64,000 nt of DNA from an uncultured Candidatus Saccharibacteria bacterium (lineage in GTDB: Bacteria; Patescibacteriota; Minisyncoccia; Phycocordibacterales; JABMNX01). Made by a program: the position numbers and the translations under genes. Each line of letters begins with the position of its first letter. Position 1 is the first letter of the stretch. The notes beneath the pieces were generated by a model. It made no database searches. It saw nothing but the letters and a program-made list of their open reading frames with translations, and was not told where the DNA came from. Shown in pieces: positions 1,982-14,861 of this stretch. Where the stretch lies: positions 699 through 64,698 of the forward strand of contig CAZNRH010000004.1 in assembly GCA_964575755.1 (NCBI GenBank), read 5' to 3'.

Positions 1982-2114
1982 CCCGTTAGAGTTAGGACAC
2001 TGATATAGACAATCTTTGTCCTAAAATTAAACTTTTTGTTAAAAATCGACTTTATTCCCCATATATTGTTTCAGTGTCCGACAGTCGTCCATGAACGACT
2101 TATCTCTAACGGGA
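1981..2114. repeat. MITE-like or leader hairpin element with terminal inverted repeats TCCCGTTAGAG / CTCTAACGGGA
   Basis: 11-bp perfect inverted termini at 1981-1991 and 2104-2114, plus an internal hairpin 'aggacactgatatagacaatctttgtcct'. The same termini occur at 41372-41491. Confidence 0.6.
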
Positions 2115-2151
2115 TTCATATACACAGTATACTACTTCTAAACAAAACTGT

Positions 2152-2212
2152 GGGCTACCTCGTGCTGGAACTGTGGGATTCCTTGCCCTGTAAGATTATT
2201 TCACTCTTTTTT
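2152..2212. repeat. Conserved intergenic motif 'GGGCTACCTCGTG...CTGTAAGrTTATTT' (copy 1 of 3)
   Basis: Near-identical 13-mer also at 2823-2832 and 3478-3490, each downstream of a consecutive minus-strand gene. Confidence 0.55.
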
Positions 2213-2251
2213 TGAATATAAATCGAAGGTTCCTCGTGCAAGAATATAAAA

Positions 2252-2719: not shown

Positions 2720-2799
2720 ATCCTAATTCTAACGCAGTTAGCAAATTCGCATAGCAAAGTTGTTTACAAGTTACTTCAAGCACACTAAGAAACTATTTT

Positions 2800-2880
2800 C
2801 CTCGTGCTAGCATGATGTGGCAGGCTACCTCGGGGTTGGAACCATAGTCGGTCAACCTCTGTAAGGTTATTTTACTATTT
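2800..2880. repeat. Conserved intergenic motif (copy 2): 'CAGGCTACCTCGG...CTCTGTAAGGTTATTTTACT'
   Basis: Shares the GGCTACCTCG core and the CTGTAAG-TTATTT tail with copies at 2152 and 3478. Confidence 0.55.
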
Positions 2881-2913
2881 TTTCTAATATAAATTTAAGG
2901 TTTTAACAGCTCT

Positions 2914-3462
2914 TTATTCTTCTTTGAATTTAAGCCTTGGCCACTTCTCAAACCACTCTTTCTTTTTTGCTCTTTCTTTAACTAAATCTAATCCTCCTGG
3001 AAATTTAGGGCTTGGTCTTACAACTAAATTAGTTAAATCATCTATTCCGTGTGGAGCTACAAGAGTTAATTTGCCATTTCTTAACCTGACTCCTATACCA
3101 GTGGCTGTCTCTGGCCATCGAGAAATAGCATCCCTCATTGATTTATAAGGAGGTAAATTATTCCATTTGTGAGCATATACTTCATTGACTATTTCCCAAT
3201 CGAAACCCGTCTGGTTACTAAGTTTTTGTGATAATTTTTTGTCGGTTTTCTGATTGGTTTCTTTGGGGTCATAATAAACCAAATCGATATCATTTGTGTC
3301 AACTTTTAAATTTGAATATCCGTGTAAATAATCCCACACTTTATTTCTTATAAATCCACCGCCTATAACCCAATTAGGAAAATTTAGATCTTCTGCAATT
3401 TGCAAGACTTTCATCATCCACTCATCTTTTTTTATTAAATTTAAAATGTCTTGTTCATTCAT
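2914..3462 (-). CDS. Nucleotidyltransferase-family protein (DUF925 / NTP_transf_6-like)
   Basis: 182 aa with 'GGGFIRNKVWDYLHG...DIDLVYYD', pattern typical of minimal nucleotidyltransferases. Confidence 0.55.
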   Translation of the reverse strand: MNEQDILNLIKKDEWMMKVLQIAEDLNFPNWVIGGGFIRNKVWDYLHGYSNLKVDTNDIDLVYYDPKETNQKTDKKLSQKLSNQTGFDWEIVNEVYAHKWNNLPPYKSMRDAISRWPETATGIGVRLRNGKLTLVAPHGIDDLTNLVVRPSPKFPGGLDLVKERAKKKEWFEKWPRLKFKEE

Positions 3463-3477
3463 GTTTTTATACGTTGC

Positions 3478-3545
3478 GGGCTACCTCGTGTGTTCAGACC
3501 GTGGTCGTTAAGGTCAGCAAGGTTCGTTTCAAGCTTTTTAGAATA
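3478..3545. repeat. Conserved intergenic motif (copy 3): 'GCGGGCTACCTCGTGTG...GTTAAGGTCAGCAAGG'
   Basis: Third copy of the GGGCTACCTCGTG 13-mer. Confidence 0.55.
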
Positions 3546-3615
3546 TCATTTCAACGTACCTTGGGCGCCTTATATTTTTTTAAAAAGTTACAAAAGTGAA
3601 ATTTGGGTTATTAGA

Positions 3616-4410
3616 TTACAATTTCTCAATTCTAACTGCATTAAAGGCTCTTAGGATATCTTCTTTTAAGGTTGGAGTATAATCTTTGGTTTCGTTTCCT
3701 TTATCGTCCGAAAGTGCAGTTCCGTTCCCATATAGAACAACATACGTGTTTTTTCCAAGACTAACAACTGCTATGTATCCTCGTAATGTGATAGTTTCAT
3801 ATTCTGTATGTATATCAGTTGGTATAAGGTTGGTATATTTAATATTAAGAGTTGGATTGGATATGTTTAACAGAATAGCAGCACCTTTCATAAGTCGTCT
3901 ACATAGAGAGTTATTGCTTTTGCTACCAACATCACTATGAGATAGGCCACCAGAGAAATCATAAAGTGTGCCTTGGTATCCGTTGATTTGTATCTGTTTG
4001 GAGGACATAATATTTCCTGTAGGCATTTCTATACATGGATTCGGATCGCCAAAATCATACAACCAATTTTTCTGGTCAGCTACAGCTAGACTGAAATGAT
4101 CTTGGAGCGTAAATTCTCTATTCTCTTTAAATTTTACAAGATACGCTCCTAGCCAAGATTGATATTGTTTTGCATTACGATCGTAACGGGAGGAAACACC
4201 GTTTTTGTCTCTTGCCCCCATAGTCCAATGGTTGACTCCCCAAGTCCTAATGCCATGTTTAGCCCAAGAAGGTCCCATATTGAATCTAACTAACCCATTG
4301 ATCCAAGTGTTAGGGATGTTTGTAAATTCAACACGATATCCAATCTTTCTCTCGAGTAGTCGAATATACCAAGAATACATATAACCAATGAATTGTAGAA
4401 TGTTTTTCAT
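3616..4410 (-). CDS. Hypothetical protein; likely start is the internal ATG (MKNILQF...)
   Basis: The long ORF begins at a TTG. The conserved upstream block 'TTTGCTATaCaAATTT..TGCGTTAGAA' that is shared with the GNAT gene sits immediately before the internal ATG at 4410. Confidence 0.5.
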   Translation of the reverse strand: MKNILQFIGYMYSWYIRLLERKIGYRVEFTNIPNTWINGLVRFNMGPSWAKHGIRTWGVNHWTMGARDKNGVSSRYDRNAKQYQSWLGAYLVKFKENREFTLQDHFSLAVADQKNWLYDFGDPNPCIEMPTGNIMSSKQIQINGYQGTLYDFSGGLSHSDVGSKSNNSLCRRLMKGAAILLNISNPTLNIKYTNLIPTDIHTEYETITLRGYIAVVSLGKNTYVVLYGNGTALSDDKGNETKDYTPTLKEDILRAFNAVRIEKL

Positions 4411-4496
4411 ACTTTCTAACGCAACCACTAAATTTGTATAGCAAATTACCTGCAAGCTACTTCAAGCGCCTGAGACCTCATGCCAGCTCTAAGATG

Positions 4497-4580
4497 CGGA
4501 GGAGGTGGGACTCGAACCCACAAGCGGTTTCCCGCGCCTGTTTTCAAGACAGGTCCGTTACCAATTCCGGGCACTCCTCC
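4497..4580 (-). tRNA. tRNA-Ser (anticodon TGA)
   Basis: Cloverleaf read by hand: acceptor GGAGGAG/CTCCTCC, anticodon loop CTTGAAA, long variable arm, T-arm TGGGTTCGAGTCCCA, discriminator G, no encoded CCA. Confidence 0.85.
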
Positions 4581-4608
4581 TTGTCTAGACATGTATCCTA
4601 CCATTAAA

Positions 4609-5085
4609 TCAGCTATTTTTTAAGTGATGTTCCTCTGAGTGACAATTTGGACAAAGTAGTTTTAGGTTTTTCAATTCGTTATTTTCTTTGTTTCTATCTA
4701 TATGATGTACCTCTAATATTTTAGATATATCATAAGTGCACACCTCACATGTTCCACCTCTTTGGTGTAGTAGCCTTATTTTTAAACTCCTTATGTTTTT
4801 GACCTTATCTCTAGGTCTATTGATTTTGTATTTGATGCCTGTTCTGTGTATGTTTGCACATTTCCTACTACATGTTTTTTTATTTGCGCTAGCAAGAATT
4901 AATGTTCTGCAAACGGTACAAGGTTTTTCTTTCCTACAAGAAATTCCATAACAAACTTGTCCACAGAATACTCTACCCCCATTCCTTTCGATCTCAGCAG
5001 GTCTTTTGTATACGGGTTTACTGCAAATTAAGCATTTTGTATTGGGATTTCTTTTATACTCAGTCACTAACCCAGTATACCACAA
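4609..5085 (-). CDS. HNH endonuclease with N-terminal Cys-rich zinc-finger region
   Basis: C-terminal 'VHHIDRNKENNELKNLKLLCPNCH'. Paralog of 13658-14131. Lies next to tRNA-Ser. Confidence 0.8.
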   Translation of the reverse strand: MWYTGLVTEYKRNPNTKCLICSKPVYKRPAEIERNGGRVFCGQVCYGISCRKEKPCTVCRTLILASANKKTCSRKCANIHRTGIKYKINRPRDKVKNIRSLKIRLLHQRGGTCEVCTYDISKILEVHHIDRNKENNELKNLKLLCPNCHSEEHHLKNS

Positions 5086-5122
5086 AAACGTTTCGTGTAA
5101 GTATGTGTTAGGATATAAAAAT

Positions 5123-5539
5123 ATGAAAATTTTAGGAATTGATTATGGAACAAAAAGAGTTGGTATCGCTATTTCTGACGACACGGCTTCTCTTGCGTTC
5201 CCTAAAGCGATATTGAGCAACTCACATACTCTTTTAGATGAAATAAAGTCTATTATTGATAGTAATAAAGTAGAAGAAATTGTTATTGGGCAGTCACTTA
5301 ATACAGAAGGAGAAGAAAATCTGCTAATGGAAGATATTAAAAGGTTTATGACTCACTTAGATGGAAAAGTTAATCTTCCTATGCATCTTGAACCAGAATT
5401 CTTTACTTCAACTGAAGCACATAAGGGTGTAAAGGGTGGGGAGGTAAATCCTCACATGATAGATGCTGCAGCGGCAGCGCTTATACTTCAAAGGTATCTT
5501 GACAGAAGAAATAATAGTAAAAAGCAGGAAGAAAAATAA
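5123..5539 (+). CDS. ruvX: Holliday-junction resolvase-like RuvX/YqgF
   Basis: 'MKILGIDYGTKRVGIAISD' N-terminal signature. Internal ATG at 5123 chosen over the ORF-track start at 5006. Confidence 0.85.
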   Translation: MKILGIDYGTKRVGIAISDDTASLAFPKAILSNSHTLLDEIKSIIDSNKVEEIVIGQSLNTEGEENLLMEDIKRFMTHLDGKVNLPMHLEPEFFTSTEAHKGVKGGEVNPHMIDAAAAALILQRYLDRRNNSKKQEEK

Positions 5540-5564
5540 TAAGTAAAAGGTATAATACATACAT

Positions 5565-5891
5565 ATGATTTCATTTGATGAGTTTAAAAATGTTGAGGTT
5601 AAGATAGGAGAGGTAAAGTCTGCAGAGCGTGTCGAGAATACTGATAAACTAATACGGCTCATGGTTGACGTGGGCGAGGAGGAGGATAGACAGATAGTCT
5701 CTGGTATAGCGCTTTACACTGAAGCAGATGCTCTTGTAGGAAGGAAGTTTCCATTTGTTGTAAATCTTGAGCCACGTGTTATTTGTGGTCTAGAAAGTAA
5801 TGGCATGATTCTAGCCGTCTCATCTAGTGACGGAGAGTTTTCTTTTTTAGAGCCTACATCAGATATTTCTGCTGGAAGTAGTATTGGATAA
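5565..5891 (+). CDS. Stand-alone tRNA-binding (Myf/EMAP-like, CsaA-type) domain protein
   Basis: 'VEVKIGEVKSAERVENTDKLIRLMVDVGE...QIVSGIA' matches the MetRS C-terminal / CsaA tRNA-binding domain. Confidence 0.75.
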   Translation: MISFDEFKNVEVKIGEVKSAERVENTDKLIRLMVDVGEEEDRQIVSGIALYTEADALVGRKFPFVVNLEPRVICGLESNGMILAVSSSDGEFSFLEPTSDISAGSSIG

Positions 5892-5905
5892 TATATAATC
5901 GATAT

Positions 5906-6517
5906 ATGTTGGTAAGTATTATAGAAAAAATAACAACACTACAAACACGTAGTACAGAGTGGTTTAAGGAAAGGGCACATGGTGCCTATGCTAAAGCATG
6001 GTTATTTTTCTTGTCATTTACTGAGTCTTCATTCTTGTTTATTCCGCCAGACATATTACTCGTCGCCATTTTACTGGCTGGTTCTCGTCAGTGGTTTCAC
6101 TATGCAACACTTACTACGATAGCGTCTGTACTCGGTGCTGTATTTGGTTATGCTGTGGCAGTGTTTTTCTTTGATACCGTGGGTATTAAGATAATACACT
6201 TCTATAACCTCGAAGTAGTCATGGATTCAGTACGGCTATTGTTTAACAACAATGCATTTTTAGTTATCTTCACAGCTGCATTTACTCCAATTCCATACAA
6301 AGTGTTTGTTCTCGCCGCTGGATTCCTTAAGGTTAACTTCTTTGCATTCCTTGTGGCTTCTATTATTGGCAGAGGGATGCGTTATTTTGTGATTTCATAC
6401 ACAGTCCATATGTTTGGTAAGCGTGCAGTGACACTTCTTTCTAGATACTCGGTTGCGGTTACATTAAGTGTTGTCATTCTCATTTCTATTTTTATAATAA
6501 AGGGTATATTTTTCTAA
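5906..6517 (+). CDS. DedA/YqaA-family (SNARE-associated) membrane protein
   Basis: Multi-TM protein with 'FLFIPPDILLVAILLAG' and the following Gly-rich helix, typical of DedA. Confidence 0.6.
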   Translation: MLVSIIEKITTLQTRSTEWFKERAHGAYAKAWLFFLSFTESSFLFIPPDILLVAILLAGSRQWFHYATLTTIASVLGAVFGYAVAVFFFDTVGIKIIHFYNLEVVMDSVRLLFNNNAFLVIFTAAFTPIPYKVFVLAAGFLKVNFFAFLVASIIGRGMRYFVISYTVHMFGKRAVTLLSRYSVAVTLSVVILISIFIIKGIFF

Positions 6518-6613
6518 AAAACGTAAATTCATAATAGTTTATCCGTTCTTAAGATACATCATTACTACATCTGGCAGTAATGTCAGCGTACAGTTATACT
6601 AGTAGTACATACA

Positions 6614-7705
6614 ATGAAAAAACAAATGTCAGAGGAGACAATAATGGAAAGATTTTCTAATTTCTTTCCGCCACCTGAGTTTATAAATCTTAAGGCTACT
6701 GGTGTTGATATATCAGACAATTCTGTAAAAGTTTTAGGATTTAAAAATACACAAAAAGGAAGTATTCCTGTTTTTTTTGAGGAAAACAAAATATCTGACG
6801 GAATAGTAAGCCAAGGAGGTATTGAAGATCAAGAATCTTTAATTAAAATTCTGAATGGTTTACGTATAAAGTACAATATGGAATTTGTTAGGGTGTCTTT
6901 GCCAGAAGAAAAAGCTTATTTATTTCAGACCACTGTTCCAAACCCTAATGATAAGAAGCAAATCTTAAATAGTGTAGAGTTTCAACTAGAGGAACATGTA
7001 CCTATTCCAACAGAAGAATCTGTATTTGATTTTGATATTATCAAGAAAAAACATGACGTTATCGATGTCAGTGTGACAGTTTTTCCTATAACAGTGATTG
7101 CTAATTACCAAAAAGTATTTAAATCGGCGGGACTTATTCCAGCGTCGTTTGTTATAGAGGGGCAAGCGATAGCTAATGCTGTTATCGCAAGCGGTGATAC
7201 ACAGACATATATGATAGTTGATTTTGGTAGGGCTAGAAGCGGAATATCGATTGTTAAAAATGGTATTGTAAGTTACACATCAACGGTAGAAGTTGGAGGA
7301 AATAAATTAACAGAGGCTATTATGAAACATTTTAAGGTCGACGATGTTGAGGCACAAAAAATAAAGAATAAAAAAGAATTTATCAACAACAAAGAAAACA
7401 AAGAACTTTACAGCTCACTCACAACCACAATCTCTGCTCTTAAAGATGAAATAAATCGCCACTTTACATTCTGGAACTCTAAAGATGCAAATCAAAAGAA
7501 AGAAGATAAAATAAGTAAAATAATTTTATGTGGCGGTAATGCTTCGTTGTCTGGGTTGTCAGAATTTTTGTCTGTGAATATTAAGGTGCCTGTTGAAAGA
7601 GCACGTGTGTGGCAAAATGCTTTTTCTTATAATGATTATATACCTGGGTTGAGTTACGAGGAGTCGTTGTCATACGCGACAGTTATCGGTCTTGCTTTAG
7701 CATAA
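6614..7705 (+). CDS. pilM: Type IV pilus assembly protein PilM (actin-like ATPase fold)
   Basis: 363 aa with 'GVDISDNSVKVL' at the N-terminus and 'ILCGGNASLSGLSEFL' at the C-terminus; followed by PilN/PilO-like genes. Confidence 0.75.
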   Translation: MKKQMSEETIMERFSNFFPPPEFINLKATGVDISDNSVKVLGFKNTQKGSIPVFFEENKISDGIVSQGGIEDQESLIKILNGLRIKYNMEFVRVSLPEEKAYLFQTTVPNPNDKKQILNSVEFQLEEHVPIPTEESVFDFDIIKKKHDVIDVSVTVFPITVIANYQKVFKSAGLIPASFVIEGQAIANAVIASGDTQTYMIVDFGRARSGISIVKNGIVSYTSTVEVGGNKLTEAIMKHFKVDDVEAQKIKNKKEFINNKENKELYSSLTTTISALKDEINRHFTFWNSKDANQKKEDKISKIILCGGNASLSGLSEFLSVNIKVPVERARVWQNAFSYNDYIPGLSYEESLSYATVIGLALA

Positions 7706-7707
7706 TT

Positions 7708-8247
7708 ATGGCTAATTTATTACCTCAAAAAGAAAGAAAGTCATTCGAATGGGAATATAGATCCAGGTTAGTTGTCATAATACTATTATTCTTTATAGTC
7801 ACATTTGTGATTGGTGTAGTATTTTTACTGCCTTCGTATTTTATCTCTCAATCAAAAAATGAGTCTATTGCACGACAGTTTGAATTATTAGAAAAAGCAA
7901 TAGAATTACGAGAGGAAGACGTTTCAGTTAAATCCTTACTAGCTGTAAAACAAAAAATTAATGAGTTGACTATTGTTAATGGACAGGTTCCTCAGACTAA
8001 AATATTGCAGGTGATTATAGACAGTATGGATAGTCATGTCACAGTAAACGCGTTTTTTTATATACAAAGTAAAGACAAAAACAGTGAGATGAGAATCACA
8101 GGCACGGCAGAATCTCGCACAGCCCTCCTTTCATTTTCTGATAGATTAAAAAAAGAGGAATTGTTTGAGCTGGTCGATTTCCCAGTATCAAGCTTGGCTC
8201 GAGATTCGGATATTGTATTCTCTATAATCTTGAGTGGAAATTTTTAA
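7708..8247 (+). CDS. pilN: PilN-like pilus assembly protein
   Basis: Single N-terminal TM helix plus coiled coil; start overlaps the pilM stop. Confidence 0.6.
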   Translation: MANLLPQKERKSFEWEYRSRLVVIILLFFIVTFVIGVVFLLPSYFISQSKNESIARQFELLEKAIELREEDVSVKSLLAVKQKINELTIVNGQVPQTKILQVIIDSMDSHVTVNAFFYIQSKDKNSEMRITGTAESRTALLSFSDRLKKEELFELVDFPVSSLARDSDIVFSIILSGNF

Positions 8248-8797
8248 TGATATGGTTACTATGAAATTATCAAAAACACAGATAAAAATTATTACAGCGG
8301 CTTTTATAGCTGCAATGTTTTTGGGTGTTTACGGTTCTTTTTTTATAACTATCAAAAATAAAAATAACCACATATCAGAACTTAAAAACCAGGTTGACAT
8401 AGAGGTAAGAAAAGACCATCGCCTGTATTCGGTTAAATCATTGTTAACTGACTTAAATAAAGAAATTAAGCAAATTGATACATATCTTGTGGCTGATGAT
8501 GGTGTGGTGGATTTCTTAGAAGATCTAGAAAATTTAGGTTCAATAGCTGATGTTTCTGTTAGCGTTAATTCAGTGAGTGTAGACAAAAAAACAACAGAAA
8601 TGCTTCCGTTTGAACTTTTGAAAGTTGAGTTTGTAACTCGCGGAAAATGGCGTTCTGTGGTTCAGCTTATGTCTTTATTAGAAACATCTTCGCTCGGAAT
8701 AATTATCAATAGAGTACATCTTGAGAAACTTTCGAGTTCGGAATCTTGGCAAAGTAATATTAGTTTTACTGTTTTAAAATCAAAAGTAATAGAGTAA
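8234..8797 (+). CDS. pilO: PilO-like pilus assembly protein
   Basis: N-terminal TM helix plus coiled coil; overlaps pilN, i.e. operon arrangement. Confidence 0.55.
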   Translation: MEIFNDMVTMKLSKTQIKIITAAFIAAMFLGVYGSFFITIKNKNNHISELKNQVDIEVRKDHRLYSVKSLLTDLNKEIKQIDTYLVADDGVVDFLEDLENLGSIADVSVSVNSVSVDKKTTEMLPFELLKVEFVTRGKWRSVVQLMSLLETSSLGIIINRVHLEKLSSSESWQSNISFTVLKSKVIE

Positions 8798-9136
8798 TTG
8801 GATATGGACATAGAAATGACAAAACAAAAAGTAAAGAGTCGGTTATTTTCAATAGCATTTGGAGATAAACATTTACGTTCAAAAATATATTATCATTGGA
8901 ATATCATACTCGCTGTGTTTATTGGACTGAATCTTTTGTTGTTAGTATTCAGTTGGTATCTCTTCTTACAAATAAATGAGGGAGGTATCTTTCTTGTAGA
9001 AAAAGAAAACACTGTTCAAATTGATACTATCGATAGGAATATGCTCAATGAGCTTATAAAATCTTTTGATGAAAAGAAGGTTATCTTTGAAGGGAGGACG
9101 GTATCTGCACCAAGGTTGTCAGACCCTTCTTTATAG
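8798..9136 (+). CDS. Small membrane protein encoded in the pilMNO operon
   Basis: 112 aa with one TM helix; start is adjacent to the pilO stop. Confidence 0.45.
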   Translation: MDMDIEMTKQKVKSRLFSIAFGDKHLRSKIYYHWNIILAVFIGLNLLLLVFSWYLFLQINEGGIFLVEKENTVQIDTIDRNMLNELIKSFDEKKVIFEGRTVSAPRLSDPSL

Positions 9137-9212
9137 GTGAAGTAATTGTTTTTTAAGTGTTTGTTCCGTATAGTATTAAAGCGTATAGGTTAATTGGGGG
9201 TATTATAAGAAT

Positions 9213-9288
9213 CTCTCCGTAGCTTAATGGATAGAGCAACGGGTTTCTACCCCGTCGATGCGGGTTCGATTCCTGCCGGAGAGACATT
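9213..9288 (+). tRNA. tRNA-Arg (anticodon TCT)
   Basis: Acceptor CTCTCCG/CGGAGAG, anticodon loop TTTCTAC, T-loop TTCGATT, no encoded CCA. Confidence 0.85.
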
Positions 9289-9296
9289 GGTAAATC

Positions 9297-9330
9297 AAAA
9301 ACACCCCAAATAGGGGTGTTTTTGATTTAC
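9297..9330 (+). terminator. Rho-independent terminator after tRNA-Arg
   Basis: 'aaaacaccccaaataggggtgtttttgattt'. Confidence 0.7.
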
Positions 9331-9540
9331 CAACCTCTCCGGCGGGAATCGAAAGACGGAGGCTGCGAAGCCAGTTTCGAGGTGCGAGAAACTGTAGCCG
9401 AGTCCAGACGAAAAGCACTTAGTAAAATTGAGTCTTAAAGACGAAGAATTTTACTTAGTGACTGGTCGTCGATTCCTGAGATAAGTTTAAAGAGACATTG
9501 GTAAACAAAAATACCCTGAACGGGGTATTTTTGATTTTTG
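9331..9540. repeat. tRNA-Arg 3'-end fragment duplications (one inverted, one direct), possible integration scar
   Basis: Inverted copy 'taccaacctctccggcgggaatcgaa' at ~9330-9355. Direct copy of the tRNA 3' end plus its downstream terminator at ~9470-9540: 'cgattcctgagata..gagacattggtaaacaaaaataccctgaacggggtatttttgattt'. Confidence 0.6.
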
Positions 9541-9614
9541 TGGGCGATACAGGACTCGAACCTGTGACCTACCCGGTGTAAACGGGTTGCTCTAGCCAAC
9601 TGAGCTAATCGCCC
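9541..9614 (-). tRNA. tRNA-Val (anticodon TAC)
   Basis: Reverse complement reads GGGCGAT-TA-GCTCAGTTGGCTAGAGC...CCCGTTTACACCGGG...GGTTCGAGTCC...ATCGCCC-A. Confidence 0.85.
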
Positions 9615-9639
9615 CTATTAATATTCTACGGCAATATTA

Positions 9640-9737
9640 TACTCTTCGGATATAGACTAACCCGTTTACACAAAGGTGTAAACGGAGAAACTATGCTTTG
9701 GCATACTTTCTCCTCCATCCAACTGAGCTAATCGCCC
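9640..9737 (-). pseudogene. Degenerate tRNA-Val-like copy (pseudo-tRNA fragment)
   Basis: Repeats the 5' acceptor/D-arm 'gggcgattagctcagttgg' and the anticodon-arm segment 'acccgtttacac' of the adjacent tRNA-Val but has no T-arm. Confidence 0.5.
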
Positions 9738-9820
9738 TTAATGTAAGATTATAGTACGTTATTTCTTTAAAATGTTCAAATACTTTTCTTTAATCACTTA
9801 AGACTATACACTATATATCT

Positions 9821-10093
9821 ATGTATGAAATCAAAGCTAATATAACTGGTAATGTTCAGATGGTTATGTTTCGTGACTATGTGAAGCGTAGTGCGATAAA
9901 ATTTGACCTTAGTGGTACAGTTAAGAATCTAGGAGATGGCTCTGTGGAGGTGATTGCTCAAGGTAATAAAGATGACTTAAAAAAGTTAGTAAAGCTTCTC
10001 CATAAAGGCCCTATGCTAGCTAGTGTTATACGTGTTCATGTAGAGTGGAGGAAACCTGTCGAGGACTTTGATAGTTTTATCATTGTGTATTAA
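9821..10093 (+). CDS. acyP: Acylphosphatase
   Basis: 90 aa; 'ITGNVQMVMFRDYV' N-terminal signature and 'GTVKNLGDGSVEVIAQG'. Confidence 0.8.
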   Translation: MYEIKANITGNVQMVMFRDYVKRSAIKFDLSGTVKNLGDGSVEVIAQGNKDDLKKLVKLLHKGPMLASVIRVHVEWRKPVEDFDSFIIVY

Positions 10094-10121
10094 TATTTCT
10101 ACACAACACGTAATTTATTCT

Positions 10122-10811
10122 ATGGAAGAAAACACACAGACACCAAAATGCATTAGCATGATTATGGATGGAAATAGACGATGGGCAAAAGAAAGAGGAC
10201 TTTTCCCTGTTGAGGGTCATGCCAAAGGATATGAGAAACTAAAAGAAGTTATTGAGTGGACGTACGAAGCTGGTGTACCTAACCTTATTGTGTACGCATT
10301 TTCAACTGAAAATTGGAATAGGGCAAAAGAAGAAGTTTCATATCTCATGACCTTAATCCGTAAAGTGCTTGTTGAGCAATCTGAAGAATTTAATAAAAAA
10401 GGTAACAGAATTGTTTTTGCTGGCGACATAGAACGTTTTCCAAAAGATATACAAAAACTTATACATGAGTCAGAAGAAAAAACCAAAAATAATACTGGAA
10501 ATACTTTAGTGCTTTGTATTTCCTATAGTGGACGAACAGAGATACTGCACGCTGTAAATAATTTATTGAAAGGAGAAAAAACTTCTGTAAATGAAGAGGA
10601 ATTCTCACAAGCGCTTTGGATAAAGGATGTACCAGATCCGGACATTATTATTAGGACTGGTGGGGAAAAAAGACTTTCAGGCTTTTTAACATGGCAATCT
10701 GTATATAGTGAACTCTTTTTTCCAAAGACATTTTGGCCTGCATTTTCAAAAGAAGAATTTTTGGAGATTCTTAGAGAGTTTTCTTTTAGAGATAGACGTC
10801 GAGGAAAGTAA
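10122..10811 (+). CDS. uppS: Undecaprenyl-diphosphate synthase (cis-isoprenyl transferase)
   Basis: 'IMDGNRRWAKERG' and 'VYAFSTENWNR'. Start taken at the internal ATG at 10122. Confidence 0.9.
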   Translation: MEENTQTPKCISMIMDGNRRWAKERGLFPVEGHAKGYEKLKEVIEWTYEAGVPNLIVYAFSTENWNRAKEEVSYLMTLIRKVLVEQSEEFNKKGNRIVFAGDIERFPKDIQKLIHESEEKTKNNTGNTLVLCISYSGRTEILHAVNNLLKGEKTSVNEEEFSQALWIKDVPDPDIIIRTGGEKRLSGFLTWQSVYSELFFPKTFWPAFSKEEFLEILREFSFRDRRRGK

Positions 10812-10821
10812 AATTTGTAAT

Positions 10822-11547
10822 ATGAATATTTCAATAATTTACGAAGATGATTCTGTGACTGTGGTTAATAAGCCTGCTGGTCTTATTGTGCATGGTGATG
10901 GAAAGACAAAAGAGGACACCCTGGTTGATTGGATTCTTGATAAATATCCAGACATGAAAGGAGTAGGAGAGCCACTCGTGCTCACTTCAGGAGAAATAAT
11001 TGATCGACCTGGAATTGTTCATCGTATAGACAGAGACACTTCAGGAGTGCTTGTGTTGGCCAAAACACAAGAAAGTTTTTATTTCCTTAAGGAACAGTTT
11101 AAAAATCGTTCGGTAAAAAAAGAGTACAGAGCTTTTGTATACGGATGTGTTAAAAAAGATAAAGACATTATAGATAGAGAAATTGGCAGAAGTACTAAAG
11201 ATTTTAGATTGTGGTCGGCACAAAGAGGGGCTCGGGGTAAACTGCGTGAAGCTGTAACCGAGTATAGTGTTTTAGAGAGGAGTAAGGAGTTCAGCTACCT
11301 CTCGGTCTTCCTTAAGACAGGAAGGACGCACCAGATTCGCGTGCACTTTAAAGCTATTAATCATCCTGTGATTAGTGATAGGCTCTATGCCCCTAAGCGG
11401 GAACAGGCACTGGGTTTTAATAGACTGGCACTCCATGCGTTTCGTATTGAGCTAGAAATACCGAATATTGGAAGGAAATCCTTCGAGGCTCCGTTACCTA
11501 AAGATTTTAATACTGCCGTAGAGTCTTTGTCAAAGATGGTGGTATAA
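10822..11547 (+). CDS. RluA-family pseudouridine synthase
   Basis: Catalytic motif 'HRIDRDTSGVLVLAKT'. Internal ATG at 10822; no S4 domain. Confidence 0.85.
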   Translation: MNISIIYEDDSVTVVNKPAGLIVHGDGKTKEDTLVDWILDKYPDMKGVGEPLVLTSGEIIDRPGIVHRIDRDTSGVLVLAKTQESFYFLKEQFKNRSVKKEYRAFVYGCVKKDKDIIDREIGRSTKDFRLWSAQRGARGKLREAVTEYSVLERSKEFSYLSVFLKTGRTHQIRVHFKAINHPVISDRLYAPKREQALGFNRLALHAFRIELEIPNIGRKSFEAPLPKDFNTAVESLSKMVV

Positions 11548-11599
11548 TATTGCAGATAGGTACCCCTTGTGGTACAGTACTCCTTACTATAAAGCGGTT

Positions 11600-12334
11600 A
11601 TGAATCAATTAGTAAATCAAAAAGGGATAGAAATTTCTCCAGTAAACATGGAAAGTCGAAGGGACGTAGGAATACGTGCTGGAGACACTGTTCGTGTATG
11701 GCAGAAGATTACTGAAAAGGGTAAAACGCGACTTCAGGCTTTTGAGGGTCTAGTTATTGCGCGTAAACATGGAAATGAAGCTGGAGCCACATTTACCGTA
11801 CGTAGAGTATCAGGAGGAGTTGGTGTTGAAAAGATTTATCCACTTTATTCTCCAATGATAGATAAAATTGAGATTATAAAACGATCAAAAGTTCGACGAT
11901 CAAAGCTATATCATATTCGCGAAAAGGTTGCTCGAGAGATCAAACGTCAAATGCGAAAGATGAAGATGGTAGATATTGCAACAAACTCAGGTATTCAAGA
12001 TGAGGCAAAAGCCGAGGCGGATACTAAAGCTGTTGAAGAGGCGGACGTAAAGAAGCAAGAAGAAGCCAATGTGGAGGAAGAAGCAAAGAAACAGGAAACC
12101 GAAGACTCGGAAACATCTACAAAAGACAAAAAGGAAGAAACAGAAGACGATTCTGGTGTTTCACAAGACTTCATGTCCACAAACCAAGCAAAAATCGCGT
12201 CCGGAGACGTTGCACAAGAAACTGTAAAATTGGATACTTCTGAAGAAACTCCAAGAGAAGATAGTGCTGAAGTAGTGTCTGAAAAAACAGAAGAGGTTCC
12301 AGAAAAAAAGGGCGAGGAGGAAGATAAAAAATAG
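11600..12334 (+). CDS. rplS: Ribosomal protein L19 with a long charged (Glu/Lys-rich) C-terminal extension
   Basis: L19 core 'GDTVRVWQKITEKGKTRLQAFEGLVIARKHG...YPLYSPMIDKIEI', then ~130 aa of 'KAEADTKAVEEADVKKQEE...' low-complexity tail. Confidence 0.85.
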   Translation: MNQLVNQKGIEISPVNMESRRDVGIRAGDTVRVWQKITEKGKTRLQAFEGLVIARKHGNEAGATFTVRRVSGGVGVEKIYPLYSPMIDKIEIIKRSKVRRSKLYHIREKVAREIKRQMRKMKMVDIATNSGIQDEAKAEADTKAVEEADVKKQEEANVEEEAKKQETEDSETSTKDKKEETEDDSGVSQDFMSTNQAKIASGDVAQETVKLDTSEETPREDSAEVVSEKTEEVPEKKGEEEDKK

Positions 12335-12403
12335 TAAGTACTAAAACCTAACAACGTTAGGTTTTAACTCTGGGTTAATTGGTAGACATGGTATAATAGA
12401 GGA

Positions 12404-13069
12404 GTGAATAAACGAGGTCCAAAACCTAAAGAGATAGTTGATACTACATGGTCTCCAAATCTTTCGTATGCTGTTGGATTGCTTGCGAGTGATGGGTGTT
12501 TGTCATGTGATGGACGACACATTGACTTTACCTCAAAGGACAAAGAACAAATTCTAAATTTCCGAAACATACTTAAGTTACATCATATTAAGATTGGTAA
12601 GAAAAGAAACAAGATGGGGAATGAGGCGTATCGCATTCAGTTTGGTAGTATTTTATTTTATCGATGGTTAAATGATATTGGTTTGACTTCAAATAAATCA
12701 AAAACAATTGGTAAATTAAATATTCCGGAAGAGCTCTTTTTTGATTTTTTCCGTGGTGTTTGGGATGGGGACGGTACAATATATGCATATTGGGATCCAA
12801 GATGGAAAAGTAGTTACATGTTTTACATTGGAATAGCATCCGCGAGTAAACCTTTTTTACAATGGTTACAAGATATAATTAGCAAACAGTCGGATGTGTG
12901 TGGGAAAATAACTCTTCATAAGACTTCTGGTACATTTCAATTACGTTTTGCAAAAAAAGAATCAAGAGTGGTTTTTAAAAGGATGTTCTATAAAAATAAT
13001 CTCCCATGTCTTCCTCGGAAGTTTGCAAAAGCACAAAAAATCTTTAAAATAGATGAGGATCATACATAA
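12404..13069 (+). CDS. LAGLIDADG-family homing endonuclease (double-motif, free-standing)
   Basis: Two LAGLIDADG-type motifs, 'VGLLASDGCLS' and 'FFRGVWDGDGTIYA'. Sits between rplS and tRNA-Leu. Confidence 0.75.
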   Translation: MNKRGPKPKEIVDTTWSPNLSYAVGLLASDGCLSCDGRHIDFTSKDKEQILNFRNILKLHHIKIGKKRNKMGNEAYRIQFGSILFYRWLNDIGLTSNKSKTIGKLNIPEELFFDFFRGVWDGDGTIYAYWDPRWKSSYMFYIGIASASKPFLQWLQDIISKQSDVCGKITLHKTSGTFQLRFAKKESRVVFKRMFYKNNLPCLPRKFAKAQKIFKIDEDHT

Positions 13070-13071
13070 AT

Positions 13072-13153
13072 GCCCAGGTGGTGGAAGTGGTATACACGCA
13101 CGGTTGAGGGCCGTGGCTCCTAGAGCATGCTGGTTCGAGTCCAGTCCTGGGCA
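13072..13153 (+). tRNA. tRNA-Leu (anticodon GAG)
   Basis: Acceptor GCCCAGG/CCTGGGC, anticodon loop TTGAGGG, long variable arm, T-loop TTCGAGT, discriminator A. Confidence 0.8.
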
Positions 13154-13154
13154 C

Positions 13155-13375
13155 AACACGTCAAAAATCGAGAACTGCTTCTCGGTTTTTCTCGTGTTGT
13201 GAAGCGGAGCGATGTAACGATTTTTCTTTTTCCTTAAAAATTGTTACCGCGAGCTAGGGCAGGAGGTTCTTAGTGAACGCAGTGAACTTAGAAACCTGCG
13301 CCAAAAACGTAAAAAACGAGATAAGTTTCTCGTTTTTTACGTTTTTGTGAGACGGAGCGATAAAAGATTATCAAC
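13155..13375. repeat. Two copies of a ~65-bp nested-hairpin repeat (terminator-like) between tRNA-Leu and tRNA-His
   Basis: Copy 1 'aacacgtcaaaaatcgagaactgcttctcggtttttctcgtgttgtgaagcggagcgat', copy 2 'aaaaacgtaaaaaacgagataagtttctcgttttttacgtttttgtgagacggagcgat'. Confidence 0.6.
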
Positions 13376-13471
13376 TCGACTTTATAACTATAAATCTGGT
13401 ATAGTCTTGGTGTTCCTGAGTTATAAATAAACACAATATCATATTGGTAGTTTGTTTATAACTCGGGACGT

Positions 13472-13548
13472 GGTGGTCGTAGCTCAGCTGGTAGAGCACT
13501 CGGTTGTGGTCCGAGATGTCACGGGTTCAAATCCCGTCGATCACCCCA
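13472..13548 (+). tRNA. tRNA-His (anticodon GTG) with encoded G-1 and encoded 3' CCA
   Basis: Extra 5' G before acceptor GTGGTCG, anticodon loop TTGTGGT, T-arm ACGGGTTCAAATCCCGT, discriminator C followed by CCA. Confidence 0.85.
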
Positions 13549-13657
13549 AAATAACAAAAAAAATGGTAGCCATAGTGTAACAGTTAGCACTTGGGTTTGT
13601 GTCTATACCACAAGCCTAGTTCTTTACCAGATATGTGTAAAGTGAGATAATATACAT

Positions 13658-14131
13658 ATGCCTCTTATTAAACGATGTAAAATTTGTGATAAGGTTTTTC
13701 AAACAAAACCTTTTTTTGTAAACAATGGTGGTGGGAAATATTGTTCAGTAGTATGTCATCACAGGGGTTTACGAAAAGGAAAAGTTGTCAAATGCAATTC
13801 TTGTGATAAAGAAGTTTATAAGTCATTAAAAGCGCTTAAAAATTCAAAAAGTAAAAAATACTTTTGTAGCAAATCTTGTCAAACTAAATGGCGTAATTCT
13901 GAATTCATTGGTTCCAAGCATGCTAATTGGCAACACGGAAAATACTCATACAGGAGTGTATTAGCGAGAAATGGAATTACAAAGATTTGTAATTCATGCA
14001 AAATAAAAGATAGGAGAGTTCTTGCTGTTCATCATATAGACAAAAATAAGTTAAATAATGATGTAGAAAACCTCATGTGGCTATGTCATAATTGTCATTT
14101 CTTAGTACATCATTACAAAGATAAAAAATAA
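13658..14131 (+). CDS. HNH endonuclease with N-terminal Cys-rich zinc-finger region (paralog of 4609-5085)
   Basis: 'LAVHHIDKNKLNNDVENLMWLCHNCH'. N-terminal CxxC pairs align with the other HNH gene. Confidence 0.8.
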   Translation: MPLIKRCKICDKVFQTKPFFVNNGGGKYCSVVCHHRGLRKGKVVKCNSCDKEVYKSLKALKNSKSKKYFCSKSCQTKWRNSEFIGSKHANWQHGKYSYRSVLARNGITKICNSCKIKDRRVLAVHHIDKNKLNNDVENLMWLCHNCHFLVHHYKDKK

Positions 14132-14327
14132 ATAATGACTGTGACAGATTCCTTGCAGTCGCTGTACACCGTGCCAGATATTTTCTATAAAAATATCTGG
14201 CACGGTCTTGCGAAAGCCCCATGTATTCGCTTTCTCACTCTCTATGTATCCAGATTTCTATACATATTCTATAAGGGTCTCTCAAGTATTTTTATGAATA
14301 TCAGAACTCTTTGGTATACTTACCTTT

Positions 14328-14861
14328 ATGAAGAGACCTATACTTTTAGGCACATTTGGACATCCAGGTTCTGGTAAGACTTATTTTTCTGAGAGACTAG
14401 CAAAGAAAGAAAAGCTCTTTCATCTATCTGCTGATAGAATTAGATTGAAGATGTTTAAAAATCCAAAGTATACGCTCGAAGAACACAAAATAGTTTTTGC
14501 ATTTATGAATTATCTTGCAGAAGAATTTTTAAAGCATGGCGTTAGTGTTATCTATGATGCAAACTTTAATCTACGAAAACATCGTCAGAAATTAAACAGT
14601 TTGGCTAAAAAAGCTAATGCAGAATATAAATTAGTCTGGGTGAAAACAAGTGACGAAAAAGCGATGTCTCGAATAAAGAAGAGAAGTAAACTTAAAAATA
14701 CAAAAAAGAAAGAGCTGTATCGCCCTATTGATCTAAAGGTTTTTAAATTATTAAAAGAAGAAATGCAGAATCCAACTGTAAAAGAGAAAGTTATTGAAAT
14801 TAATGGTGGTATTTCGTTTTCTAAGCAGTTTGAAAGTTACAAGAAGCAGTTGAGGTTCTAA
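14328..14861 (+). CDS. P-loop NTPase / predicted kinase (AAA_33 / zeta-toxin-like fold)
   Basis: Walker A 'GHPGSGKT' near the N-terminus. Confidence 0.6.
   Translation: MKRPILLGTFGHPGSGKTYFSERLAKKEKLFHLSADRIRLKMFKNPKYTLEEHKIVFAFMNYLAEEFLKHGVSVIYDANFNLRKHRQKLNSLAKKANAEYKLVWVKTSDEKAMSRIKKRSKLKNTKKKELYRPIDLKVFKLLKEEMQNPTVKEKVIEINGGISFSKQFESYKKQLRF

Follow-up and report, generated by a model that had tools for sequence, protein, structure and literature searches.

A conserved structured element closed by copies of the neighbouring tRNA follows tRNA-Arg and other tRNA genes in Patescibacteria

The tRNA-Arg locus of the DNA analysed here (the window, 64,000 nt from an uncultured Candidatus Saccharibacteria bacterium) contains one copy of a structured element that is conserved, present in multiple copies and located immediately after tRNA terminator hairpins in Patescibacteria (candidate phyla radiation). 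Judged from sequence, the element probably represents a candidate new family of tRNA-linked structured RNAs, the copies of which would be matched to their tRNAs by concerted evolution. All features listed in a first-pass annotation (tRNAs, partial tRNA copies and three endonucleases) are present in the sequence. Its reading of the tRNA-Arg copies as a scar of site-specific integration and excision is not supported, however: the copies make up the closing stem of the conserved element, one strand each, and the conservation of the duplicated segments in relatives indicates a structural RNA.

Architecture of the element after tRNA-Arg

The tRNA genes of the region, and the part of tRNA-Arg that is copied downstream, are:

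4496-4580, minus strand: tRNA-Ser(TGA) (ARAGORN, Rfam)
9213-9285, plus strand: tRNA-Arg(TCT), intact (ARAGORN; Rfam tRNA, 67 bits)
9265-9284, plus strand: X in tRNA-Arg, positions 54-73, the sequence copied downstream
9540-9614, minus strand: tRNA-Val(TAC), intact (ARAGORN; Rfam, 71 bits)
13072-13154, plus strand: tRNA-Leu(GAG) (ARAGORN only, without an Rfam call)
13473-13548, plus strand: tRNA-His(GTG) (ARAGORN, Rfam)

None of the tRNA fragments in the window was called as a tRNA by ARAGORN or Rfam. The repeats are far above chance, with 0 matches expected for the 24-nt core motif (100 window shuffles). Across the family the order is tRNA, hairpin t1, an inverted copy X' (reverse complement of tRNA positions 54-73), a three-way-junction core of ~110 nt and a direct copy X (positions 56-73), often followed by a second terminator-like hairpin. 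Pairing of X' with X makes the closing stem, and each copy thus bears the sequence of its own neighbouring tRNA. In the window the parts, all on the plus strand, are:

9281-9339: terminator-like hairpin t1, CACCCC-AAATA-GGGGTG followed by T5 (repeat search)
9335-9484: whole element, tRNA-Arg copy, ~150 nt (covariance model R1)
9335-9353: X', reverse complement of tRNA-Arg positions 54-72 (inverted repeat, fold)
9354-9468: three-way-junction core (RNAalifold, pair counts in 56 sequences, fold of the window copy)
9355-9357 / 9402-9404: stem base of the core, internal loop GGA/GA
9361-9364 / 9396-9399: P2 of the core
9365-9371: mini-hairpin GC-GAA-GC of the core
9373-9378 / 9388-9393: P2b of the core
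9408-9412 / 9466-9470 and 9414-9429 / 9447-9463: P3 of the core, CUUAG/CUUAG with a U-U mismatch
9469-9497: X, decayed direct repeat of the tRNA-Arg 3' end (repeat search)
9503-9536: terminator t2, diverged t1 copy that the convergent tRNA-Val shares (terminator-like call, repeats)

The inverted and direct partial copies of the tRNA-Arg 3' end that had been noted before are thus both present. X' is 95% complementary to 9265-9283 over 19 nt and makes up the 5' side of closing stem P1, in which 9343-9352 pairs with 9469-9478. It is contiguous with t1, the 27-nt arms of which (9281-9307 / 9313-9339, 93%) extend into X and X' to give a palindrome with ~45-bp arms from 9265 to 9353; this layout was found at 59 loci, and t1 loops are mostly GNRA. 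The downstream X is intact at 9469-9478 (TCGATTCCTG, 10/10), followed by a substitution of ~12 nt that interrupts its acceptor part and then by AGAGACA (9491-9497). Further direct copies of the tRNA-Arg region lie at 9491-9511 (90%) and, for the terminator, at 9507-9537 (74%).

Conservation and covariation

The window copy scores 97.3 bits with R1 (E 2e-35) as part of the R1 seed, and independent support therefore comes from the orthologues in L001 (89.5 bits), L170 (67.6 bits) and L019 (62.5 bits). The segment is conserved with compensatory hairpin changes in all three (86%, 74% and 49% UppS identity, respectively), L019 belonging to the Kaiserbacteria. In 56 sequences pairing was found in 91.1% of cells as against 26-43% with slid partners, the covariation score was 0.584 versus ~0.1, and double changes occurred at 28 of 34 pairs; none of 500 shuffles attained the observed value. 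The sample was gathered with a single sequence motif and the model built from it, an ascertainment bias partly offset by 21 copies that the model found and the motif missed; these retain the CGGAG/CGAG loop, have all four Watson-Crick combinations at N22:N86 and thereby support the core independently of the motif. The near-invariant junction nucleotides read GAAAG-N-CGGAG ... CGAG-N'-C-NGGG ... CUUAG/CUUAG. Orphan copies that lack a tRNA preserve the closing stem through compensatory change, as in L127 compared with L133.

Distribution and match to the local tRNA

About 90 copies (91 genuine motif matches) were found in metagenomes and related genomes, and 59 of the 91 begin 59-64 nt past a tRNA on the same strand, covering 25 anticodons. 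Among 80 UppS loci of diverse bacteria, matches occurred only in the Patescibacteria-type loci L001 (labelled Saccharibacteria), L017 and L019; the assignment to Patescibacteria is by these named loci rather than by the metagenome contigs. Two motif probes gave no genuine copies in viral contigs. Rfam 15 gave no match to the element at E up to 10 for the window and up to 1 for five loci, and full-text literature searches turned up no published description. No recombinase or other protein family was linked to the element in the clustered neighbourhoods of the 91 copies, where no family occurred in more than 6 loci and the recurring ones were housekeeping genes.

X is an exact 13-mer copy of the tRNA in 31 of 54 loci other than the window. 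X', frequently with mismatches or indels of 1-2 nt, tracks the tRNA even where X is decayed (window, L001, L170, L121, L130 and L102); in L170 it matches its own tRNA at 20/20 positions, though the acceptor stem there differs from that of the window. The decay of X seen in the window recurs in L001 and L170, and since the acceptor part is affected, the proposed mimicry of acceptor and T-arm is incomplete in the window copy. Close relatives also differ in copy number. L171 has a clean empty site, at which tRNA-Arg and tRNA-Val share one terminator, while tandem arrays exist in L170 and L104, which bears out the first-pass annotation in so far as direct repeats of the tRNA 3' end act like substrates for excision and duplication. 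No element follows tRNA-His in the window; L170 has two tandem copies there and L019 one.

The element would be an RNA made in the direction of the tRNA, either by read-through of t1 or from a -10-like box in its descending arm. TAnnnT boxes peak ~6 nt upstream of X', and the -10-like box is present in only about half of the copies. Further signs of an RNA are a terminator-like hairpin after 23 of 92 copies versus 0 of 80 controls, the mostly GNRA loops of t1, and an excess of wobble over A-C pairs on the plus strand (44 to 21). The closing stem would mimic the stacked acceptor and T arms of a tRNA, its match being maintained by concerted evolution rather than by repeated integration. The patterns suggest that the tRNA serves as template for correcting X' across the hairpin, the tRNA's X and X' forming one long quasi-palindrome, and that unequal exchange between the two direct repeats keeps X homogeneous; the tandem arrays and clean losses in relatives may be products of the same exchange.

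Alternative explanations

Several observations count against the RNA reading: t1, a good terminator, separates the tRNA promoter from the element, a -10-like box is present in only about half of the copies, the acceptor part of X is decayed in the window, L001 and L170, X' often has mismatches or small indels, and the element is dispensable, being absent at 4 of 5 tRNAs in L171. A terminator upstream would also suit a non-autonomous mobile DNA element, for which an unlinked or host recombinase would insert the cassette X-t1-X'-core at the T-loop/3' end of tRNAs, the folds forming in single-stranded DNA and the long X-t1-X' palindrome serving as a folded recombination site. The ends of IS200/IS605 elements, like integron attC sites, are such folds in single-stranded DNA. 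This explanation, which we consider rather unlikely, is favoured by the multiple copies, their patchy presence in close relatives, the clean empty site, the direct repeats of tRNA positions 56-73 that bound the cassette, the tandem arrays, and palindromes with ~40-bp arms that stay perfect even where X has decayed; the fraction of wobble pairs is also low (3.4%), and strand asymmetry only 2:1 (44 wobble versus 21 A-C pairs on the plus strand). Yet no transposase or recombinase family recurs near the 91 copies, a gene-carrying version is absent among 88 stretches, and the motif probes gave no copies in viral contigs. A check for recent, near-identical copies within a genome showed the opposite on 27 within-contig pairs, which are as diverged as between-contig copies (0.64 versus 0.61), and this argues against recent transposition. 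The termini are specific to the locus instead of the element, the closing stem of orphan copies is preserved by compensatory change, and ~45 near-invariant junction nucleotides with GNRA/UUCG-type loops are more typical of functional RNA.

We give even less credence to a cis-acting device in which, in read-through transcripts, X' pairs with the 3' strand of the tRNA and the downstream X completes the tRNA body, yielding a tRNA isoform with a ~190-nt T-loop insertion that would be intron-like or a switch controlling tRNA maturation. The minimum-energy fold of the full transcript does adopt this arrangement in 39 of 40 loci, X' being paired to X of the tRNA, and X of the element to the entire 7-nt 5' acceptor strand of the tRNA, but both folds share base pairs by construction, which makes the energy result weak evidence. 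That X is exact to the discriminator base, with divergence usually starting 0-7 nt beyond, and that X' tracks the tRNA and not X, would also suit it. Splicing is unnecessary, however, because the tRNA upstream is whole and equipped with a terminator of its own; the core is still conserved in the window, L001 and L170, where the acceptor part of X is lost; and orphan copies and a tRNA-Leu subtype do without a tRNA-derived stem altogether. No group I intron or ribozyme model of Rfam matched the window or the five loci, and we know of no bacterial enzyme for T-loop introns. The T-loop/3' ends of tRNAs are classic integration sites, and direct repeats of the tRNA 3' end around ~200 nt would fit an attL/attR-type remnant of a decayed integrase-driven element in the tRNA-Arg 3' end, as the first-pass annotation proposed. 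This proposal is already contradicted and scarcely credible: the segment between the repeats is conserved from L001 to L019 with compensatory changes, i.e. under purifying selection with covariation, and is common to close and phylum-level relatives; the identical core type follows tRNAs of 25 anticodons, and integration does not explain the inverted copy. Neither an integrase nor a remnant of one lies nearby, in line with the earlier statement that none is present: the Pfam annotation of the identical contig L169 (~2100-13070 of the window) contains none.

tRNA-Leu subtype, endonucleases and tRNA-Val copy

The remaining features of the region are:

4609-5085, minus strand: zinc-finger HNH endonuclease gene, 28 nt upstream of tRNA-Ser(TGA) (Pfam, PHROG searches)
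9636-9753, minus strand: partial second copy of the promoter and 5' half of tRNA-Val (repeat search)
12377-12390, plus strand: AATTGGTAGACATG, 14-nt D-arm remnant of an endonuclease-free tRNA-Leu allele (alignment)
12404-13069, plus strand: free-standing gene for a two-motif LAGLIDADG endonuclease, located between rplS and tRNA-Leu (Pfam, PDB, PHROG matches)
13183-13319, plus strand: second element copy, tRNA-Leu subtype (core ~13203-13303; R1 26.8 bits, E 2e-8)
13658-14131, plus strand: zinc-finger HNH endonuclease gene, downstream of tRNA-His (Pfam, PHROG searches)

The tRNA-Leu copy, which is outside the R1 seed, lacks a closing stem of tRNA origin; hairpins lie on either side of it (13152-13201 and 13302-13347), and a truncated repeat of the start of its core follows at 13348-13361. 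Orthologues of this copy lie after tRNA-Leu in L001, L171, L170, L019 and L017.

The double-motif LAGLIDADG endonuclease described earlier is confirmed by matches to Pfam LAGLIDADG_3, PDB 2dch (E 1.4e-5) and phrog_4645 (5.5e-28), the motifs, as seen in the translation, being GLLASDGC and GVWDGDGT. The copy at the equivalent locus of L170 is 84% identical; L001 and L171 do not have the gene, and in them tRNA-Leu comes directly after rplS. The remnant is identical to the tRNA-Leu of L001 and L171, has an equally placed homologue in L170, and is reported to overlap the -10 box TATAAT of the gene (12392-12397). By alignment tRNA-Leu(GAG) is chimeric, with D and anticodon arms unlike those of the closest relatives and a native-like T-arm and acceptor. 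The gene is apparently a free-standing homing-type endonuclease inserted in tRNA-Leu(GAG), at a putative cleavage site, with the tRNA rebuilt by co-conversion. The idea that the endonucleases drive the rearrangements is thus supported for the LAGLIDADG gene, where tRNA-Leu was disrupted and reconstituted. The two HNH proteins beside tRNA-His and tRNA-Ser are likewise as described, 33% identical to each other, and are further free-standing endonucleases adjoining tRNAs; the tRNA-Ser arrangement (4496-5085) also occurs in L171 (81% protein identity), and the gene at 13658-14131 is missing from that position in L170 and L171.

A degenerate partial copy of tRNA-Val is present as well: positions 1-25 recur at 9713-9740 with 89% identity to the tRNA 5' end, TATAAT boxes lie at 9636-9641 and 9748-9753, hairpins at 9684-9713 and 9662-9685, and an anticodon-arm copy with an inverted copy at 9653-9685 (9653-9671 being the inverted D/anticodon region). 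The copy looks like a lineage-specific rearrangement scar: L170, L171 and L019 do not have it, and tRNA-Val changes orientation among relatives.

Relation to known systems and meaning

Several known systems share single traits with the element. At integrase att sites, too, inserted DNA lies between direct repeats of the tRNA segment from T-loop to 3' end and can be lost precisely by recombination between the repeats; here there is no integrase, the insert of ~200 nt is conserved, folded and non-coding, an extra inverted copy is present, and the insert recurs after 25 tRNA species. Distal to E. coli tyrT lie tandem 178-bp repeats, each beginning with the last ~19 nt of tRNA-Tyr and presumed to stem from unequal exchange, but at a single locus of one species, with neither an inverted copy nor a conserved structured core shared among tRNAs. 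Integron attC and CTX-phage attP are folded single-strand recombination sites, whose long, imperfect hairpins contain bulged bases and pass for a double-stranded target by structure rather than sequence; they are accompanied by cargo genes and a tyrosine recombinase, dedicated or supplied by the host, neither of which is evident here, and lack a near-invariant three-way-junction core. For the tRNA-Leu locus the parallel is phage T4 SegB, a free-standing homing endonuclease in a tRNA gene region. Here, too, the gene adjoins a tRNA gene and is present or absent among relatives at one locus, the flanking tRNA appears co-converted and the uninterrupted allele has left a remnant, although SegB is a phage GIY-YIG enzyme and ours a LAGLIDADG protein on a bacterial chromosome with an inferred cleavage site.

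The closest RNA is the bacterial Y RNA YrlA, according to Chen et al. (2014, PMC4201824) a structured, tRNA-mimicking non-coding RNA and substrate of RNase P and CCA addition, in which the 5' and 3' ends of the molecule close a helix that resembles part of a tRNA. YrlA mimics T and D loops, adjoins the Ro60 gene and occurs once or a few times per genome, whereas in the present element the core replaces the T-loop, the stem is copied from the neighbouring tRNA and copies follow many tRNAs; no Rfam Y-RNA model matched the window or the five loci. Most likely the core is a passenger on tRNA genes, a putative module for binding a protein or ligand or for catalysis.

The tRNA neighbourhood and its relatives

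The tRNA genes called by ARAGORN are:

4496-4580, minus strand, tRNA-Ser(tga)
9213-9285, plus strand, tRNA-Arg(tct)
9540-9614, minus strand, tRNA-Val(tac)
13072-13154, plus strand, tRNA-Leu(gag), ARAGORN only, a chimeric gene adjoining a LAGLIDADG gene
13473-13548, plus strand, tRNA-His(gtg)

Four of the five were also called by Rfam at the gathering score, where tRNA-Leu is not listed; over the whole window only tRNAs were returned at this score. Together with a repeat analysis of the tRNA-Arg/tRNA-Val region, ARAGORN recovered all the tRNA genes and repeats described in the first-pass annotation. They lie in a housekeeping neighbourhood (RuvX, PilM, acylphosphatase, UppS, pseudouridine synthase, L19) and, as had been noted, no integrase is found among the annotations of this neighbourhood. 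The closest UppS relatives of the window are Patescibacteria assemblies. The 12-kb metagenome contig L169 encodes an identical UppS protein and carries the same sequence across the region compared; UppS identity is 86% in L001 (labelled Saccharibacteria), 74% in L170, 71% in L171 and 49% in L019 (Kaiserbacteria), where the tRNA-Arg/Val/Leu/His synteny is the same. An exact look-up of the window acylphosphatase returned no record, and a tandem-repeat scan of the window found none. The rplS ORF (11567-12334) encodes 255 aa, with the L19 domain at residues 35-126 only, followed by a long K/E-rich C-terminal tail; the protein has 256 aa in L171 and 197 aa in L170.

A structured element trails tRNA-Arg

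The tRNA-Arg gene is followed by an inverted copy of its 3' end (19 nt, 9335-9353, 95% complementary to 9265-9283), which runs into a hairpin with 27-nt arms (9281-9307 / 9313-9339), and by direct copies at 9469-9478, 9491-9511 and 9507-9537. The first-pass annotation had taken these copies for an integration scar. A direct repeat of the tRNA 3' segment does surround an insert, as at an attachment site (9266-9300 vs 9469-9511), but neither an integrase or its remnant nor cargo was found at the locus, with just ~200 nt of non-coding DNA between the repeats. In L001 the ~150 nt between both tRNA-Arg fragment copies are conserved, the terminator-like hairpin behind the tRNA (t1) is wholly changed and the internal hairpins are altered by compensating substitutions. 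In L019 this core trails tRNA-Arg, tRNA-His and tRNA-Leu, each copy being flanked by the reverse complement (X') and a direct copy (X) of its own tRNA's 3' end. We therefore replace the scar by a previously uncatalogued structured element, conserved in L001 and L019, in which X' and X pair as a closing stem, P1, around a core; it belongs to a conserved, tRNA-trailing, structured element family. A group I intron or a split or permuted tRNA does not fit the locus: the upstream tRNAs are intact, ARAGORN called no extra, split or permuted tRNA gene, and no intron model was matched in Rfam at the window locus and five further loci. Annotators will mistake such copies for integration scars, pseudo-tRNAs or microRNA-like hairpins.

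Distribution of the element

A 24-nt core motif (TCGAARRRMGGMGSNYGCGAAGCC) occurs once in the window, with 0 occurrences expected by chance, and was found in 88 metagenome stretches. Among 91 genuine motif hits, 59 start 59-64 nt past the end of a same-strand tRNA, with 25 different anticodons represented; the others are found at the ends of contigs, form the second unit of a tandem array or lack a called tRNA. Two motif scans and a model search of viral contigs gave no genuine copy, which speaks against a viral origin. With Rfam 15, nothing but tRNAs and spurious hits of microRNA hairpins on the long palindromes was returned for window positions 9100-9850 at E up to 10, and likewise only tRNAs and microRNA-hairpin noise for the five loci with the top-scoring copies at E up to 1. 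Likeness to a kink-turn, the Ro-binding stem of Y RNA, signal-recognition-particle RNA, 6S, tmRNA or RNase P was judged by eye; none fits, and none has Rfam support. A search of the full-text literature found no description of the element.

When the 531 ORFs within 2.5 kb of the 91 copies were clustered in search of a linked protein, only syntenic housekeeping genes were recurrent. No HNH cluster was seen near the copies, and NCBIfam IscB matches are limited to the HNH domain, which argues against HNH genes as partners of the element; none of the 88 stretches contained a version with genes of its own.

Secondary structure and covariation

An alignment of 56 copies was folded with RNAalifold, giving P1 and two arms; with a 3-bp helix added by eye the structure comprises 34 pairs. 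Standard pairs occupy 91.1% of cells, compared with 26-43% when the partners are slid by 1-3 columns, and in 28 of the 34 pairs both sides have changed. A covariation score of 0.584 vs about 0.1 in controls was obtained, and none of 500 shuffles matched the observed values. Part of this overall signal (P1) reflects no more than the match to different tRNAs. The core helices covary independently, and compensatory helix substitutions beyond controls, as expected of a structured RNA, are present. About 45 nucleotides at the junction are near-invariant, which also counts in favour of an RNA.

A covariance model built from the alignment gave 97 bits for the tRNA-Arg copy of the window, a sequence that was in the seed, and detected a second window copy 3' of tRNA-Leu (13183-13319, 26.8 bits, E 2e-8) that was not. 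Applied to 80 UppS loci from many phyla, it matched only the Patescibacteria-type L001, L017 and L019, and it added further copies in metagenome loci. Twenty-one copies that lack the search motif retain GAAAG-N-CGGAG ... CGAG-N'-C, with N:N' paired in each of the four Watson-Crick combinations, as well as the CUUAG/CUUAG mismatch helix; the worry that the motif search itself selected the conserved features is thereby limited.

The closing stem matches the neighbouring tRNA

X spans tRNA positions 56-73 and mostly ends 0-7 nt past the discriminator base; its last 13 nt (positions 61-73) are an exact tRNA copy in 31 of 54 distinct loci. X' is less exact, with mismatches and 1-2-nt indels. It is complementary to tRNA positions 54-73, and because this complementarity continues via the trailer into the hairpin, a single long quasi-palindrome extends from the tRNA 3' end over t1 to X'. 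Where X differs from the tRNA, X' for the most part agrees with the tRNA (L121, L130, L102, the window, L001, L170). The window copy has lost the acceptor part of X. The same part is lost in L170, yet X' is there complementary at 20 of 20 positions to its own tRNA-Arg, whose acceptor stem GCCCCCG differs from the CTCTCCG of the window. X' therefore tracks the tRNA directly. Along a putative tRNA-mimic stack (12-bp acceptor plus T stem, up to the discriminator base), ungapped X' pairing drops to 42-74% at positions 69-72, partly from indels.

Orphan copies, for which no upstream tRNA was called, retain P1 by compensatory change (L127 vs L133), and a subtype without the tRNA-derived stem trails tRNA-Leu in 6 of 6 relatives examined; the core is thus maintained in its own right.

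Several flanking sequences recur. The orphan copies L127, L133 and L116, none with a called tRNA, have a common upstream string (CTCAAACACAGTTCTAACATCCTCTACGACGGCACCC). Almost the same element is found in L092 and, as an orphan, in L112; tRNA-Gln is present in L092 only, ...GAGACCGAGACGGCCAGC stands in its place in L112, and the same junction string is present in L164. A recurrent hairpin, CCGTTCATGTAATGAAAGG, is found in the element flanks of L081, L091 and L093, in the last within tRNA-like sequence not called by ARAGORN. A second repeat family lies 3' of the canonical element in L019 (3030-3130 and 11330-11400); it opens with another X' and core start (AAAGAGGCGCC), followed by CCGCACCATGCACGCATGATGCGG...GCCCGCACCATACGTACCAATTCGTATACATAATAAAAG, and its 3' part also trails tRNA-Val (about 5450-5670, minus strand).

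Gain, loss and age of copies

At the corresponding site in L171, which is empty, tRNA-Arg and the convergent tRNA-Val lie 43 nt apart with one bidirectional terminator common to both. In L170 the element lies 3' of tRNA-Arg and of tRNA-Val, and tRNA-His is followed by two tandem units that are identical; unit duplications were also found in L104, L089, L095, L128 and the tRNA-His locus of L019. Copy identity is 0.64 within a contig vs 0.61 between contigs, only tandem duplicates being identical, and there is no grouping by anticodon (0.616 vs 0.604, p = 0.37).

These values bear on how the copies arose. Copies group neither by genome nor by anticodon; neither simple vertical descent with each tRNA nor recent bursts is shown. 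Since copies within a contig are no more alike and anticodons do not group, we regard the family as old and diverged and not as a recent burst. The element was also compared with a miniature inverted-repeat transposable element (MITE), whose terminal inverted repeats are the same in all copies and whose target duplication is short and fixed; in the element, by contrast, X' and X vary by locus and equal the local tRNA, and the direct repeat is made up of 18 nt of tRNA with a further 0-7 nt. Also unlike a MITE, the element shows no nearly identical copies on one contig other than tandem duplicates, and no autonomous partner was found among the 88 stretches. We rejected the idea that X' is a retroelement primer-binding site for the tRNA, because the complement continues into the genomic trailer and not into CCA.

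Proposed remodelling of tRNA-Leu by a LAGLIDADG gene

The ORF at 12404-13069 had been described as a double-motif LAGLIDADG endonuclease, and Pfam (PF14528, 31 bits), PDB (2dch, E 1.4e-5) and PHROGs (phrog_4645) agree; its translation contains the two motifs GLLASDGC and GVWDGDGT. The gene is at the same place in L170, with 84% protein identity vs 74% for UppS, and is absent in L001 and L171, where tRNA-Leu lies directly 3' of rplS. Just 5' of the gene, AATTGGTAGACATG (12377-12390) is identical to the tRNA-Leu D-arm of L001/L171, a 14-nt remnant of the uninterrupted allele, and a homologous remnant is present in L170. The intact tRNA-Leu 3' of the gene differs in its D-arm and anticodon arm, which are closer to those of L019/L017, while its T-arm and acceptor are native-like; this chimeric allele of the window is TGGTATACACG, the L001/L171-type allele TGGTAGACATG. 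Presence and absence at one locus, a disrupted target and flanks that look co-converted, the signature of a homing endonuclease, are all found. We infer that the putative endonuclease targets tRNA-Leu(GAG), because the remnant and the chimeric tRNA-Leu are the pattern expected, and that it was acquired with co-conversion of the tRNA 5' half. The earlier suggestion that endonucleases themselves drive the rearrangements in this region is supported for this gene and tRNA-Leu. The remnant partly supplies a TATAAT -10 box (12392-12397) about 6-7 nt before the GTG start at 12404, and judging from this spacing the mRNA is probably leaderless. A 14-nt stretch between tRNA-His and the downstream HNH gene (13598-13611, in the region 13585-13620) is 86% complementary to the tRNA-Leu D-arm at 13087-13100, which may be chance or another tRNA-Leu fragment. 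The LAGLIDADG/tRNA-Leu locus offers a specific case, open to experimental test, in which a free-standing endonuclease on a chromosome would have remodelled an essential tRNA gene.

HNH genes and the partial tRNA-Val copy

Two paralogous zinc-finger HNH endonucleases, also named in the first-pass annotation, were confirmed by Pfam (HNH/HNH_3) and PHROGs (phrog_1271) in the ORFs at 13658-14131 (E 1e-18) and 4609-5085 (E 1e-15), with a mutual identity of 33%. They are not RNA-guided IscB proteins, the match spanning the HNH domain only (20-27 bits vs a 175-bit cutoff). A conserved counterpart (81%) of the gene next to tRNA-Ser is found in L171, and comparison with L170 and L171 shows the one 3' of tRNA-His to be specific to the window lineage. 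A repeat search found no fragments of tRNA-His or tRNA-Ser flanking either gene. Just 3' of the HNH gene at 13658-14131, a perfect palindrome with 17-bp arms (ACCGTGCCAGATATTTT / AAAATATCTGGCACGGT, 14168-14206) lies within the ORF 14135-14377; long perfect hairpins are seemingly common in this genome.

The degenerate partial copy of tRNA-Val is likewise present (9653-9685 and 9713-9740). It comprises a duplicated TATAAT box together with tRNA positions 1-25 and both direct and inverted copies of the anticodon arm. L170, L171 and L019 lack it, and in L001 and L170 the tRNA-Val gene itself lies on the other strand. We read the partial copy as a putative lineage-specific inversion/duplication scar.

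RNA or DNA, and significance

We consider it likely from sequence features that the element is an RNA read in the direction of the tRNA. The loops of t1 are mostly GNRA tetraloops, as in RNA terminators; TAnnnT boxes peak with their end about 6 nt 5' of X', in roughly half of the copies; the core helices contain 44 wobble vs 21 A-C pairs; and a strict terminator pattern was found downstream of 23 of 92 copies (25%) vs 0 of 80 control positions (0%). Against an RNA, the element has a good terminator, t1, ahead of it, and wobble pairs are few (3.4%). GNA triloops, which might point to single-stranded DNA, are merely the shortest versions of variable hairpins capped elsewhere by GNRA or UUCG. The element probably keeps its match to the adjoining tRNA by concerted evolution: X' would be corrected against the tRNA across the palindrome, and unequal exchange between X repeats would homogenise X and would also explain the tandem arrays and clean losses.

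In the minimum-energy fold of the whole transcript X' pairs with the tRNA's own 3' strand at 39 of 40 loci, and the downstream X completes the tRNA, yielding a predicted tRNA with a ~190-nt T-loop insertion. This alternative arrangement is suggestive only, because both arrangements hold the same pairs by construction, and it is inapplicable to the window copy, where X lacks its acceptor part. From this predicted fold one may conceive of a radiation-wide class of "tRNA-addressed" RNAs, in which sense and antisense of the local tRNA 3' strand surround a conserved catalytic or ligand/protein-binding core and swap partners with the tRNA; we think this improbable. If true, the element would serve its tRNA as a sensor or as a switch for maturation or quality control, or alternatively would act on individual tRNAs as a new small ribozyme or as an intron-like element.

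Genomes of the candidate phyla radiation are tiny with little spare DNA, and many still keep a folded element of ~150 nt behind tRNA genes. The core is as strictly conserved as that of a riboswitch or ribozyme, and the closing stem is rewritten to fit whichever tRNA precedes it; we know of no other RNA family with a stem sequence dictated by its genomic neighbour. A DNA-level element would represent a new way of colonising tRNA genes with no enzyme linked to it; an RNA would be an abundant player in tRNA biology across a very large and poorly understood part of the bacterial tree.
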